Positions 58,134 through 64,000 of a DNA stretch of 64,000 bases are shown piece by piece. The stretch comes from Actinomycetes bacterium (GTDB lineage Bacteria; Actinomycetota; Acidimicrobiia; Acidimicrobiales; Bog-793): positions 8,573-72,572 of the forward strand of contig JAJZBI010000021.1 of the NCBI GenBank assembly GCA_021798985.1, written 5' to 3'. A model generated the notes under the pieces. That model ran no database searches. It was not told the DNA's origin and saw only the letters and a list, made by a program, of their open reading frames with translations. The translations under genes were made by a program, and so were the position numbers. How positions within the stretch are numbered: the stretch's first letter is position 1; each line of letters opens with the position of its first letter.

Positions 58134-58418
58134 GTGGCGAGCGTCGTGCATCGGGCCGATCAGCACCGCTTTGTGATTGAAGAGGACGGCGCCGAAGGCG
58201 AGCTCGTCTATGAGCGGCGCGACGGCGAGGTCGTCTTCGTCCACACGGGCGTGCCACCACAGATCCAGAACCGAGGGCTCGCCGCGAAGCTCGTCGCGGC
58301 GGGGACGACGTGGGCGGCATCCGAGCAACTCGTCGTCGTGCCGCAGTGCTCCTACGTGCAGGTGTGGCTGAAGCGCCATCCCGAACAAGCCGCCGCGCTC
58401 GACATCGCCTGGCCGTAA
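58134..58418 (+). CDS. Small GNAT-family acetyltransferase (YjdJ-like)
   Basis: HTGVPPQIQNRGLA, PQCSYV. Confidence 0.85.
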   Translation: MASVVHRADQHRFVIEEDGAEGELVYERRDGEVVFVHTGVPPQIQNRGLAAKLVAAGTTWAASEQLVVVPQCSYVQVWLKRHPEQAAALDIAWP

Positions 58419-58594
58419 GAACGCGGCGGCCCGCCAACGCGCGCCCCATCCTCGCGGGCGCCGCCGCCCGCTGGCTGGCCCGCCAAGTGACGGCGGTGCC
58501 AGCCGGACCCCTCGGTGGTGCGTGCCGCTGCGCTCCCTCCCGGCAGGCGTGGTCGACGGGGTGGATCCACCCTCGCTCCCAGCGCCTCACTACG

Positions 58595-61543
58595 GTGAGC
58601 ACCGTGGAGGACACCGGCGCCGCAGTCGTCGCTTCCCCGCCCCGGCGTCCCCGCCCGATCGACGGGGCGGTTCCCCGAGTCCTGAGCTTCCTGCCGGGAG
58701 ATCCCCCGCGCCAGGGCACCTTCGTCGCCTACCCGCGCCCGGCCGGGATGCGAACAGGCAACGGGTCCGGCGAGGCGATGGAACTGGAGGTCGTGGTGGC
58801 GACGGGGCGGAGCGCGTCGGTTCGCCGCCGCATCGTCCCCGCCCAGCCGATCGGCATTGCCGAGGCGCTCGCCGCTCTCGACGGCGGTCTCGAGGGTGCC
58901 GCCATCTGGTCGGCCGTGCTCTCGGCGGGCCTCGGCCTGATCGCCCGCGGCCGGCTGTATCCGACGGTCACCACCACGGGGGCCGACGCCTGGCGGGCTG
59001 GTCCGCTCGATGCGGCGGATCGCCGGCTCCTCGCCGAGCTCGCCGCGGCGCTGCCGCCGGCGGCACACGCCCTGGTGGTCCCCGGATCGTCGCCGCTTCG
59101 GATCCGCTCGGCCGCCGGCTTGATCCAGGCCTGTTGGGACGCCCTCGCCGACACGCTCCCGCGCACGGCCGCGGCCCCCTTGATCGTCGCGAACGGCGCT
59201 GCGTCGGCCGCGCCCTTCGCCGCTCTTGCCCCGGTCGCCTGCGCTGAGCTGGCGCCGTGGCTCGTCGATGCTGCCGGCGGCCTGGTCGATGAGACGGGCG
59301 CGGACGTGGCGCTGCGCATCGAGCTCGATCCGCTCGCGGGGCCTGCGCCGTCTGTTCGACAAGCGCTCGATGACCAAGGAGATGGCGCCGCCCACCAGAA
59401 GACGAGCGGGCGCGAGGGCGAGGACAATGCCGGACTGGTCGGCCGTGCCGTGCTCCAGCTCACGAGCCGCGCGGAGGCAAGCCTGGTGGTCGATGCCGCC
59501 GAGCTGTACCGCGCACCGGCGGCGGTTGTGGCCCGCTTCGGCGATGATGCCGAGACCGACCTGTTGCGCGCGCTGCGGCGCGGGGCGCGGGCCTGGCCAC
59601 CGCTCGAGGCGCTGCTGCACGAGCGGGCGCCGACCGGCCTCGACCTCGACGAGGACCGCCTCGCCGAGCTATTGAGCGAGGGCACCGCACGGTTCCAAGG
59701 GACGGGGATCTCGCTGCTCTGGCCGTCCGACATCTTGGCGGAGGGCATCGAGCTGCGCGCGGCGGTGGTCGCCGCTCCCGGGGTGGTGACCGAGGCGGGC
59801 TTCGGCCTCGACCAGCTCGTCGAGTTCACCTGGCAGGCCACCTTGGGCGGTGAGCTCCTCTCGGCCGAAGAGATCGACCAGCTGGCCGAGGCCAAGCGGG
59901 GCCTCGTTCGGCTGCGGGGGCGCTTTATCGCCGTCGACGCGGCGCTCCTCGAGCGCCTACGAGCAAAGCGACGGCGCCTCAGCGCCGCCGAGGCGCTCGG
60001 TAGCCTGCTCGCCGGGACGCTTGACCTCGATGGCGAATCGGTGCCCGTCGTGGCCGACGGTCCATTGGCCGGGCTGGCGGAGCGGCTCGGCGCGCTTCGC
60101 GCCGCGCCGGGTGACCTTGGCGTCCCGAAGGGCCTGGCGAGCGGGGTCGCGCTGCGCCCCTACCAGGCCCGCGGGGTGGCGTGGCTGGACGCGATGTGCG
60201 AGGCCGGGCTCGGGGGATGCCTTGCGGACGACATGGGGCTCGGAAAGACGCTGCAGGTGATCGCCCTCCATCTGCATCGCGCGGCGCGGGGCCGTGGGCC
60301 CACGCTCGTGATCTGTCCAACCTCGCTGCTCGGCAACTGGGAGCGCGAAATACGGCGCTTCGCGCCCGACACGGCGGTGCGCCGCCATCACGGCACCGCC
60401 CGAGATCTTCAAGATCTCGCGGTCGGCGAGATCGTCGTCACGAGCTACGGCATCGCCCGGCGCGACGCCGAGGCGCTTGGAGCCGCGGGCTTCGGCCTCG
60501 TGGTCGCCGATGAAGCTCAGCACGCGAAGAACCCCGCCACGGCAACGGCCCGGGCGCTTCGCGCCATTGGCGCTCCGGTGCGGCTCGCCCTCAGCGGGAC
60601 GCCCGTCGAGAACCGCCTGAGCGAGCTCTGGTCCATCCTCGATTGGACCATGCCGGGGCTGCTCGGGCCCTTCGAGCGCTTCGTGCGCAACGTCGCCACG
60701 CCGATCGAGCGCGAGCGCGACCCGCTCGTGACCGAGCGGCTGGCAAAGACCGTGATGCCTTTCGTGCTGCGCCGTAAGAAGACGGACCCCGAGGTGGCGC
60801 CGGACCTCCCAGCACGCATCGTCAGCGACGTGCCGGTTCCCCTGACGAGCGAGCAGGTCACCTTGTATGAGGCCGAGGTGCGCGAGGCGCTTGAGGCGAT
60901 CGCCACGAAGGACGGCATCGCCCGCCAGGGCCTCGTGCTGCGCATGCTGACGGTCTTGAAGCAGATCTGCAACCATCCGGCGCAGTACCTGCACCAGCGC
61001 GGGCCACTGGCCGGCCGCTCGGGCAAGCTCGCCGCGCTGGAGGAGCTCATCGACGTGATCGTGGCTGAGGGCGAGTCCGTCCTCGTCTTCAGCCAGTACG
61101 TCGAGTGCCTCGCGCTCATCGAGGCGCGGCTCTCCGAGCTCGGCGTGGCGAGCCTGCTCTTCCACGGTGGTGTCGCAGCCAAGCGCCGCGGCGAGATCGT
61201 CGCCGACTTCCAGGCGGGGAAGGCGCCGGTGCTCTTGTTGTCCTTGAAGGCCGGCGGGGTCGGCTTGAACCTGACGCGGGCGACCCATGTCGTGCACTTC
61301 GACCGGTGGTGGAACCCCGCCGTCGAGGATCAGGCAACCGACCGGGCGCATCGCATCGGTCAGGCTCGCCGCGTGCAAGTCCACCGGTTGATCGCCGAGG
61401 GCACCTTGGAGGATCGCGTCGGCCAGCTCATCGAGCAAAAGCGCGCGCTCGCCGAGGCGGTCGTCGGTGGCGGCGAGACGTTCCTCGGACAGCTCAGCAA
61501 CGAGGAGCTCGCAGATCTCGTGCAGCTGGGGAGCGGGGCGTGA
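58595..61543 (+). CDS. SNF2-family helicase/translocase
   Basis: LADDMGLGKT, DEAQ, SGTPVENRL, SLKAGGVGLNL, QATDRAHRIGQ; start uncertain. Confidence 0.95.
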   Translation: MSTVEDTGAAVVASPPRRPRPIDGAVPRVLSFLPGDPPRQGTFVAYPRPAGMRTGNGSGEAMELEVVVATGRSASVRRRIVPAQPIGIAEALAALDGGLEGAAIWSAVLSAGLGLIARGRLYPTVTTTGADAWRAGPLDAADRRLLAELAAALPPAAHALVVPGSSPLRIRSAAGLIQACWDALADTLPRTAAAPLIVANGAASAAPFAALAPVACAELAPWLVDAAGGLVDETGADVALRIELDPLAGPAPSVRQALDDQGDGAAHQKTSGREGEDNAGLVGRAVLQLTSRAEASLVVDAAELYRAPAAVVARFGDDAETDLLRALRRGARAWPPLEALLHERAPTGLDLDEDRLAELLSEGTARFQGTGISLLWPSDILAEGIELRAAVVAAPGVVTEAGFGLDQLVEFTWQATLGGELLSAEEIDQLAEAKRGLVRLRGRFIAVDAALLERLRAKRRRLSAAEALGSLLAGTLDLDGESVPVVADGPLAGLAERLGALRAAPGDLGVPKGLASGVALRPYQARGVAWLDAMCEAGLGGCLADDMGLGKTLQVIALHLHRAARGRGPTLVICPTSLLGNWEREIRRFAPDTAVRRHHGTARDLQDLAVGEIVVTSYGIARRDAEALGAAGFGLVVADEAQHAKNPATATARALRAIGAPVRLALSGTPVENRLSELWSILDWTMPGLLGPFERFVRNVATPIERERDPLVTERLAKTVMPFVLRRKKTDPEVAPDLPARIVSDVPVPLTSEQVTLYEAEVREALEAIATKDGIARQGLVLRMLTVLKQICNHPAQYLHQRGPLAGRSGKLAALEELIDVIVAEGESVLVFSQYVECLALIEARLSELGVASLLFHGGVAAKRRGEIVADFQAGKAPVLLLSLKAGGVGLNLTRATHVVHFDRWWNPAVEDQATDRAHRIGQARRVQVHRLIAEGTLEDRVGQLIEQKRALAEAVVGGGETFLGQLSNEELADLVQLGSGA

Positions 61544-62832
61544 GCGCGATGCCGCCCCGTCCCGGTTCGCCAAAGCGCGCCAACGGCCCATCGCTGCGTC
61601 GCCCGGGGAGCCGGCGCGGCTTTGGTGAGTCCTGGTGGGGCGCGGCGTGGATCGAGGCGCTCGAGCAACGGGCGCGCCTTGACCCGAATCGTCTGCCGCG
61701 CGGGCGGACCTATGCACGCAGCGGTGCCGTCGGCACGCTGAGCGTGGCCCCGGGTGAGGTGCTCGCAGAGGTACAGGGGAGCCGGCCCGCTCCCTACAAG
61801 GTCAAGGTCCGCGTCCGGCCCTTCGACGCGGCCGAGTGGGAGCGGGTGCTCGACGCACTGGCGGCTGAGATCGGCCACACCGCCGCATTGCTGGACGGTG
61901 AGCTGCCCTCGGGCATCGCCGACGACGTGGCCTCGGTGGGTCTCGACCTGTTGCCCGGCCCCGGTGAGGTGCAGCCCCGCTGTTCGTGTCCGGACTGGGC
62001 CGATCCCTGCAAGCACGCGGCGGCCGTGTGCTACCTCGTCGCCGATGTCCTCGATACCGACCCGTTCGCGGTCTTCTTGCTGCGCGGCCGGGCCCGGGAG
62101 GAGGTGCTCGCCGCGCTGCGCGCTCGTCGCGTCGGCGCGCCGAGCCCGCAGGTCCGCGAGGACCTCGTTCTCGAGCCAATCGCCGACGCGGGCGTCCTCG
62201 CGCGCGAGGCCTGGAGGCGCGCGCTGTCGCCATTGCCGCCGCTCCCGCCGTTGCCCCGCCGCGCGCTCCGTCCGACGGTGCTCGCGGCAGATCCACCGCC
62301 TGGGTCCGGCGTTGACGCCGCTGGCCTGCTGATGCTGGCGGCCGATGCTGCCGAGCGGGCGCTGTTAATTGCACGCGGTGCGAGCGACGAGGCGCGTTCG
62401 CTGAGCGTCGAACATGACCTTGCCCGACGCGCCGCGCGCCTCGTCGGGAGCGGCGACGGGCCTGGTGATGCGGCAAGCCTCGAGGACCTGGCGCGGCGCG
62501 CGGGGGTGGCGGTGCGCGAGCTCGCGCTGTGGGGACGGGCCTGGCGCGATGGCGGTGCCGAAGGGCTGGCCACCTTGACCGAATCGTGGGATCCCGATCG
62601 CCTCGCGCTGGCTTGGGGACGCGAGATCCTTCCCCACGCCGTCGTGCGGCGCAACCGGTTGACTCAAGGCGAGCAGCAGCTTCGCTACGGCCGCGACGGG
62701 CGTTTCTACCCCTACCGCAAGGACCGCTCTGGTCGTTGGACCCCGGACGGCCCGCCGCTCAGCAGGGAGGCCGATGAGGCGGTCGGCGCGCTCGATGAGT
62801 TCGCGGCCGAAGGTGGCGACAAGCGCCGCTGA
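61540..62832 (+). CDS. SWIM zinc-finger protein
   Basis: RLPRGRTYAR, CSCPDWADPCKHAAA; GTGA overlap with the SNF2 gene. Confidence 0.9.
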   Translation: MSAMPPRPGSPKRANGPSLRRPGSRRGFGESWWGAAWIEALEQRARLDPNRLPRGRTYARSGAVGTLSVAPGEVLAEVQGSRPAPYKVKVRVRPFDAAEWERVLDALAAEIGHTAALLDGELPSGIADDVASVGLDLLPGPGEVQPRCSCPDWADPCKHAAAVCYLVADVLDTDPFAVFLLRGRAREEVLAALRARRVGAPSPQVREDLVLEPIADAGVLAREAWRRALSPLPPLPPLPRRALRPTVLAADPPPGSGVDAAGLLMLAADAAERALLIARGASDEARSLSVEHDLARRAARLVGSGDGPGDAASLEDLARRAGVAVRELALWGRAWRDGGAEGLATLTESWDPDRLALAWGREILPHAVVRRNRLTQGEQQLRYGRDGRFYPYRKDRSGRWTPDGPPLSREADEAVGALDEFAAEGGDKRR

Positions 62833-62901: not shown

Positions 62902-63328
62902 CGAACGTTCGAACAAGCGCGGCATGGTCGTGCCGTTCTCGTCTTGGGTCGTCATTCATTGGCCAGGTCGGGCCTGCAGAGACGATGGTCATGCTTCGGC
63001 TTGGCGTCGCGATGGCCAAGGAGGAGGCAAGCGCTCGGGCCGAGCATGGCGCCTTGGCGCGTGCTCGGGGAAGCGGGGCGCAAGACGGCGAACGCCCGAC
63101 AGATCTGCGTAAACCGGAGTCAGCGAATGCCGGGGCGCGATAGCCGCCCAACGCCGGGTACCAGCCGCCGTCTCGGTGAGTGGCGGCTCAGGAGACGAGT
63201 GGCCCTGCCGATAAATACATCCGTGTAACGTTCTGGCAGCGATCTGGAGAGCGCCGAGGGGTGTTCCCGATCGGGCGGCCTCGCTGTCGTTGAGCCTGCT
63301 CTCAAGCTCGCCATCCGATTCCAGGTCG

Positions 63329-63419
63329 TGTTCTCATATGCACACATCGGCCCAGCCGGCCGTGTGTGTTCATATCAACACGTGTCCCTTAATTATGACA
63401 ATGCGTGCATATGGGCACA
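63329..63419 (+). promoter_or_regulatory. Four 18-bp TGT-N12-ACA-like sites upstream of hipB (candidate autoregulatory operators)
   Basis: tgttctcatatgcacaca (63329), tgtgttcatatcaacacg (63365), tgtcccttaattatgaca (63383), tgcgtgcatatgggcaca (63402). Confidence 0.55.
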
Positions 63420-63644
63420 GCAGCTGAGTGGCGGGCGGGTAATCCAGCAGAGCTCGGGAAGACGATCGCCAGGTTGCGGCAGCGAGCGGGCCTGCGGCAG
63501 GAGGACCTCGCCGACAGGGCTGGCATCCGCCGCGAGTACCTCTCGAAGATCGAGTCCGGACACGCGACTGAGCAACTGCGGAGTCTCTTCATGATCCTCC
63601 GGGCGCTCGGGAACGAATTCGCTGTCGTTGAGCGGATCCATTGA
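63411..63644 (+). CDS. hipB: XRE-family HTH antitoxin, HipB-like
   Basis: ELGKTIARLRQRAGLRQEDLADRAGIRREYLSKIESG; TGATG coupling to the next ORF. Confidence 0.85.
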   Translation: MGTAAEWRAGNPAELGKTIARLRQRAGLRQEDLADRAGIRREYLSKIESGHATEQLRSLFMILRALGNEFAVVERIH

Positions 63645-63689
63645 TGGCAAGCGAAGCGCTCGATGTCTGGCTGTATGAGACCCTCATCG
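63644..63689 (+). pseudogene. hipA: 5' fragment of a hipA-like toxin gene interrupted by an IS element
   Basis: ATG overlapping the hipB stop; MASEALDVWLYETLI resembles the HipA N-terminal L-x-V-x-L motif; sequence switches to the IS end at 63690. Confidence 0.7.
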
Positions 63690-63900
63690 TTGACACCTCC
63701 CCGCCCTGAAGGGCGGGGATTCGGGGAACACTCGGCCTGTCATGGGACACATGACAGATCTCCCGCGCTCCTTCCCGCTTCGCGGCTGGCCGCAGGGAGA
63801 GATCCCTGTCTGACATCAGCTCCACGGGCGTTTAGGGTCTCCGACTGCCCATCGGCGACCGATTGCTCGCGCATCGCGAGCAAGCGCAACCCCTCGGCGA
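63690..63900 (-). ncRNA. Predicted TnpB omegaRNA (reRNA) scaffold overlapping the tnpB 3' end; 5' boundary approximate
   Basis: Stems at 63698-63719, 63738-63756 (tgtcatg/catgaca) and 63753-63810; known architecture of this IS family. Confidence 0.6.
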
Positions 63901-64000
63901 GGATGTTGCGGGCGGCGTTCACGTCCCGGTCGTGGGAAGCACCGCAGTTGCTACAGGTCCAGTGACGGACCCCGAGCTCTCGCTGGCCCTTCGGGCCAGC
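63740..64000 (-). CDS. tnpB: C-terminal part of the RNA-guided nuclease TnpB
   Basis: Reads [34 protein letters not shown]: zinc ribbon plus the RuvC-III Asp. Confidence 0.92.

Follow-up and report, generated by a model that had tools for sequence, protein, structure and literature searches.

The window, i.e. the whole stretch of 64,000 nt that was analysed (C26:8573-72572), ends within a hipBA-like locus that is interrupted by an insertion element. The contig C26 extends 3070 nt further, and positions in this extension are given below as window equivalents. The genome is a metagenome-assembled one of 3.76 Mb in 71 contigs, with 70.7% GC and 96.9% completeness, and the runs that contain the locus are mine-drainage metagenomes. 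The final 600 nt of the window contain an apparently intact hipB-like gene (63405..63644, plus strand), which encodes an Xre-type helix-turn-helix protein of 79 aa (Pfam HTH_3 3.1e-11, HTH_31 4.8e-10). Its stop codon TGA overlaps the start codon of hipA at 63644 (TGATG). The hipA frame runs for 15 codons plus the first base of codon 16 (MASEALDVWLYETLI + G..; 63644..63689, plus strand) and is then lost, since from 63690 onwards the plus strand reads TTGA, the complement of the 3' TCAA of an element on the opposite strand. The right part of this IS200/IS605 element fills the rest of the window (63690..64000, minus strand). Read directly from the sequence, the present open reading frame enters the element and comprises 21 aa (63644..63709, plus strand); the read-through adds V-D-T-S-P-P before a TGA at 63707-63709, which is located in the TGAA loop of the right-end hairpin of the element. 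An earlier note on this DNA had described the break in codon 16 at the TCAA end, the stop within the hairpin and the loss of the toxin, and all three descriptions were borne out, the first also by related right ends and by an empty site (see below).

Two intact genes are located directly upstream of the hipBA region (58310-62832), one for a large SNF2-family helicase (DUF3670, SNF2 and Helicase_C domains) and, following it, one for a SWIM zinc-finger protein. The entire hipBA segment, including the element, is flanked by a 60-nt inverted repeat with 90% complementarity, the arms of which lie at 63185-63244 and at window equivalent 66899-66958 (L001 1185-1244 and 4899-4958). The arrangement looks as if the toxin-antitoxin module belonged to a cassette or had a remnant of another element on either side. 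The right arm is abutted by the final 127 nt of C26 (L001 4944-5070), which are 100% identical to the ends of C11, C66 and C50 (both ends) and the first 24 nt of which (CTAGTGTCCTGAGCC...) recur in C13, C68 and C2. These terminal nucleotides represent a multi-copy, unassembled insertion sequence.

The complete element is a tnpB-only member of the IS200/IS605 family and spans 1483 bp (window equivalent 63690-65172, C26:72262-73744, minus strand). In the order of the minus strand it consists of a left-end hairpin, tnpB with two frame changes, a right-end hairpin and the terminal TCAA. The right-end hairpin, CCCCGCCC-(TGAA/UUCA)-GGGCGGGG, occupies 63699..63718, 9 nt from the TCAA end, and has a perfect 8-bp stem with the loop TGAA on the plus strand and TTCA on the element strand. 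Its 16-nt core recurs exactly in the left end, where the hairpin CACCGCCC-TTCA-GGGCGGTG (element strand) is located outside the window. The hairpins are thus subterminal at both ends and there are no terminal inverted repeats, as is typical of IS200/IS605 elements. A search of the genome for a second copy showed that the element is the only one at the DNA level, and no further right- or left-end hairpins were found in the genome besides its own two.

Both boundaries can be set to the base. For the right end we relied on four related elements in other genomes as well as on the close relative at loci L045 and L048. Related elements in the genomes G054 and G011 finish with ...GGGGAGGTGTCAA and diverge right after, a more distant element in G015 finishes with ...GGAGTCAC at the equivalent place, and the close relative also ends at ...GGGGAGGTGTCAA. 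The left end was defined by an empty site, a 650-nt contig in run X5 with about 90% identity to hipB and the 5' end of hipA. This contig aligns up to 63689 and then reads GCAACCTCACAGAGCCGAAGCGCGGG, the homologue of GTAGCCTCACGGAGCCGAAGTGCGGG at 65173. Position 63689 is thereby joined directly to the homologue of 65173, and the insertion caused no target-site duplication. Because TTG occurs at both junctions, the flanks could be rejoined to give I-G, I-V-G or I-V-V-G. The latter two were rejected, and the I-G junction (63690-65172) was adopted on the basis of the TCAA right ends, an ungapped alignment with the HipA protein of Escherichia coli and the X5 empty site.

Past the left end, hipA restarts at window equivalent 65173 (GT AGC CTC ACG GAG..., corresponding to (G)SLTEPKCGKLRLDY...), and a conserved glycine codon is completed across the junction as G|GT. 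The continuation of the gene and its HipA kinase nature, both of which had been anticipated in the earlier note, could thus be established. The rejoined flanks match the Pfam families Couple_hipA (6e-20, profile positions 1-98 of 99) and HipA_C (3e-40), and the product aligns with E. coli HipA (PDB 2wiu) from residue 7 and without a gap across the junction (3e-23). As in E. coli hipBA, the gene for a helix-turn-helix antitoxin is followed by an overlapping hipA with Couple_hipA and HipA_C domains. The catalytic motifs are also retained, since GVQEK, GNADAHAKN and PAYDI align with the P-loop GxQEK, the motif of the catalytic aspartate and that of the Mg-binding aspartate, respectively. In contrast to the E. 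coli system, to which identity amounts to about 25-30%, the hipA gene described here is split by an element and carries a frameshift near codon 341. Its coding sequence is therefore broken twice, by the 1483-bp insertion and by a -1 frameshift near window equivalent 66150, where a hipA homologue in run X4 has the base that is absent here. Besides this one absent base the frame is open for more than 400 codons. Since hipA has this further frameshift of its own, a precise excision of the element would not restore the toxin. The genome holds only one other hipA homologue, which is 31% identical.

On the minus strand, the left end is adjoined by 5'-GCTAC (window equivalent 65173-65177, outside the window). 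The same pentamer precedes the left end in five places, namely in this copy, in the L045-type relative, at G011:C67, at G015:C149 and in a Glycomyces element, and it was also found in two further contigs of run X4. From these sites the target-adjacent motif (TAM) is about 5'-GCTAC. It ends in C, in agreement with the expectation in the earlier note that was based on completion of the glycine codon. The uninterrupted hipB-hipA allele of X5, which stems from the same mine-drainage study, has GTTGC at the position of the TAM. Judging from this difference, it would be neither a target for insertion nor a target for TnpB.

The tnpB gene extends to about window equivalent 65030 and is a pseudogene, of which the 3' part with the zinc ribbon and RuvC-III lies in the window (63740..64000, minus strand; PF07282 2.6e-09; Cas12f1-like TNB zinc ribbon). 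Instead of forming one uninterrupted frame of about 400-440 aa, the gene is spread over three reading frames owing to frameshifts close to 64562 and 64906. The three pieces match HTH_OrfB_IS605 (4e-15) and, on a 276-aa piece, OrfB_IS605 (9e-23) and TNB (6e-20); the zinc ribbon has the CxxC...CxxC pattern. The motifs GVDVG, GTEHL and HDRDEN of ISDra2 TnpB, which we take to hold the catalytic residues D191, E278 and D361, correspond here to GIDVG, CVEDL and HDRDVN. An alignment with the ISDra2 protein (PDB 8bf8; 2.6e-36 over the C-terminal 270 aa) revealed that the RuvC residues D/E/D, the possible loss of which had been raised in the earlier note, are kept.

When comparing tnpB with its closest intact relative (P0001, 438 aa, 85% identical), the lesions become apparent as two additional nucleotides near 64906 and one missing nucleotide near 64562, next to an in-frame gain of 3 nt. 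The frameshift junctions are also seen against more distant homologues. The dN/dS ratio of tnpB versus the relative is 0.20, which indicates that the divergence occurred mostly under selection and that the inactivation is fairly recent. A scan of genome contigs with the TnpB fragment yielded only homologues of 33-56% identity, mostly from Actinomycetota, which were useful for the alignment but not for defining the ends of the element. The TnpB genes found elsewhere in the genome share about 29% identity or less. Five more TnpB-like matches to the TNB domain are present in the genome (L002 and L004-L007 on contigs C68, C39, C51 and C47), several of which have short frames of 161-187 aa, so that other tnpB pseudogenes are likely to exist there. 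Signs of a frameshift or truncation are also present in several of the actinobacterial homologues (L044, L027, L032 and L039), and tnpB appears to decay commonly in this clade.

The intact relative, which is found in other assemblies (loci L045-L048), also carries a divergently transcribed Y1_Tnp gene adjoining tnpB. In comparison with it, 113 nt of the left end are kept at 90% identity in the element, about 355 nt of tnpA are absent, and the rest is 86% identical through to the right end. The tnpA gene, which the earlier note had sought in the adjoining sequence, has thus been deleted from the element. A search of the 96.9%-complete genome for a Y1 transposase (PF01797) gave no match, so a Y1 (HUH) TnpA is present neither in the element nor elsewhere in the assembly, which consists of 71 contigs, several with repeat ends, so that tnpA could sit in unassembled sequence. 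The element is a non-autonomous, stranded derivative. As tnpA is lost and the genome lacks a Y1 transposase, no excision is expected, and no empty site would arise that could be cut.

Next to the right end, the element is predicted to specify an omegaRNA. The putative scaffold of about 170 nt (63690..63860, minus strand; 5' end estimated) overlaps the 3' end and the stop codon of tnpB. The ~170 nt before the right end are conserved among elements with TnpBs that are 40-85% identical, and a consensus fold of six related elements has 43 pairs, with compensatory changes in 20. It includes a long-range ACGCC/GGTGT pairing, in which GGTGT is located just before the right end. The single-sequence fold of the scaffold has a z value of -2.9, and the region is free of indels relative to the intact relative. 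Applying the published flank rule (PMC8612924) to the right-end boundary, we predict a guide of presumably 20 nt 3' of the right end, 5'-CGATGAGGGTCTCATACAGC (63670..63689, minus strand), which is antisense to hipA codons 9/10-16. Its position beside the boundary is in line with the earlier note, which had placed it opposite codons ~10-16, and the 5-bp self-stem ATGAG-GGT-CTCAT that was pointed out there is seen in the minimum free energy fold. An empty target would read GCTAC|CGATGAGGGTCTCATACAGC, and a genome-wide search found no other target with TAM and guide.

Eight guide nucleotides (AGGGUCUC, 63672-63679) are perfectly complementary to the conserved scaffold stretch GAGACCCU (about 63836-63843, minus strand). 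By a rough estimate such a match has a chance expectation of about 0.04. The pairing appears in the centroid fold and, if the RNA is made, could sequester the guide. No RNA from the locus was detected in three metatranscriptomes of the same study, which may not contain the organism. A 765-nt contig of the metatranscriptome run X6 comprises the right-end hairpin and the flank of another element of this family, which hints at expression of related omegaRNAs or tnpB transcripts by the community.

The correct geometry of guide and TAM, the kept RuvC residues and the conserved omegaRNA fold speak for an element that is alive, with TnpB and omegaRNA cutting intact hipA alleles and thereby locking the toxin-null state. 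The frameshifts would then be assembly errors, and all three lesions do lie in short G/C-rich repeats or runs, a context for indel errors. However, an independent assembly, the Logan contigs of run X1, is identical across the entire locus (0 differences). Of the three lesions, two recur in other samples: a contig of X3, which belongs to another study, spans the first tnpB lesion with 0 differences, and in X2 there are 0 differences at the hipA lesion, or 0-1 when the hipA/right-end junction is included. The second tnpB frameshift was seen only in X1-derived assemblies; a ~90% identical copy of the element in run X4 has the base that is missing here at 64562. Since the lesions are reproduced by an independent assembly and in other samples, and close relatives possess the missing bases, they are real and not specific to one assembly, and assembly error was rejected as the main reading. 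Moreover, the adjacent SNF2 gene of 3.2 kb is uninterrupted, which argues that this assembly does not scatter indels at such a rate, and tnpA is found neither in the element nor in the genome. Even if a live element were true, its mechanism has already been published. We therefore regard this reading as very improbable. The insertion was found wherever this strain is seen, a statement that refers to runs compared as contigs, so that rare intact or empty-site variants are possible in the population.

Equally improbable appears a scenario in which the nuclease is dead and the omegaRNA is still in use, either pairing as an antisense RNA with the 5' end of the hipBA transcript or guiding a TnpB supplied in trans. 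It would account for a scaffold that lacks indels, a kept consensus fold and a guide antisense to hipA codons 9/10-16. Yet the metatranscriptomes mentioned above gave no RNA, hipA is already a pseudogene and leaves no obvious regulatory target, and the guide can pair both with itself and with the scaffold. Supply of TnpB in trans was rejected as unlikely, given that the other TnpBs of the genome, at only ~29% identity, are unlikely to bind the scaffold. Even less credible is the idea that the omegaRNA is still made and, because its guide is antisense to the leader-proximal coding region of hipBA, has been retained to regulate the orphan hipB as a small RNA or to direct a heterologous TnpB; if true, it would be an exapted omegaRNA without a nuclease of its own. 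Somewhat more room, albeit still little, must be given to the idea that hipA was a pseudogene before the insertion, so that the element knocked out nothing. The downstream frameshift exists, and the order of events is unreadable from a single sequence, but the frame is otherwise open and the catalytic motifs are kept. This argues that the decay of hipA is slight and probably took place after the insertion.

We thus consider it very probable that the locus is an immobile fossil without nuclease, a recently decayed IS605-type insertion in hipA. According to this scenario, a Y1 transposase would have inserted a tnpB-only IS605-type derivative by 'peel-and-paste' just 3' of 5'-GCTAC on the bottom strand of hipA, at the codons for Gly16 and Ser17 (GGT AGC). 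The toxin gene was thereby split after 46 nt, which left HipB orphaned. While the element was intact, an omegaRNA that extended past the right end into the flanking hipA sequence would have guided TnpB to cut uninterrupted copies (GCTAC + CGATGAGGGTCTCATACAGC), a donor-joint homing and retention that we infer for the past. Decay, which presumably came afterwards, comprised the deletion of tnpA, two frameshifts in tnpB and a third one in hipA, and the genome is now devoid of a Y1 transposase. The insertion itself is a textbook IS200/IS605 event of a kind that has been described before.

A close counterpart is ISDra2 of Deinococcus radiodurans, for which the right-end flank was shown to serve as guide and TnpB to target the donor joint (PMC8612924). 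Targeting of the donor joint has also been shown for Geobacillus elements (PMC10055086), and in plasmids it has been described as a drive (PMC11870625). With ISDra2 the element shares a TnpB with helix-turn-helix, RuvC D/E/D and zinc ribbon, an omegaRNA (here predicted) overlapping the 3' end of tnpB as well as the right end, the use of the right-end flank as guide, and a 5-nt TAM beside the left end. It differs in the TAM, which is TTGAT in ISDra2 and GCTAC here, in the absence of tnpA, in the two frameshifts of tnpB and in its host, a high-GC organism from mine drainage. In the published donor-joint retention, a guide against the scarless joint biases inheritance towards the insertion allele. 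This is the very idea that the earlier note had put forward for hipA, according to which TnpB now cuts restored or incoming hipA alleles as a lock or a drive. However, the published systems had active TnpA and TnpB, whereas both activities are missing here, so that such a function would be historical at most. For the present sequence the proposal fails, because there is no nuclease, no transposase and a toxin that stays dead even after precise excision. It is the general TnpB mechanism applied to one locus and not special to hipA.

The tnpB-only layout also resembles IS1341-type elements and their sense-overlapping RNAs (sotRNAs), which are archaeal and have a UUCA tetraloop (PMC4615843; HgcC and sot0042 families, RF00062 and RF02656). 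Common to both is that the 3' end of the sense-overlapping RNA (here predicted) is formed by a right-end hairpin whose tetraloop is UUCA. In contrast to these archaeal families, no match at the gathering thresholds of Rfam was obtained for the element, which scored far below them (HgcC, 21.7 versus 50 bits; sot0042, 19.6 versus 88 bits), and membership is not established. The sub-threshold matches sit on the right-end hairpin, and it is only this part that matches well.

It is important to note that a guide matching the host gene holds for every TnpB insertion, as the guide of any TnpB element is directed against the empty site of that same element (PMC8612924, PMC10055086), and is no finding by itself. 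The locus has little significance beyond annotation. It documents an as yet unnamed lineage of the IS605 family with the TAM GCTAC in high-GC mine-drainage bacteria, of which the intact relative with tnpA and tnpB (P0001, L045-L048) is a candidate compact nuclease with a G/C-containing TAM. It also provides a base-resolved example of a toxin gene that was inactivated by such an element, with both then decaying together.
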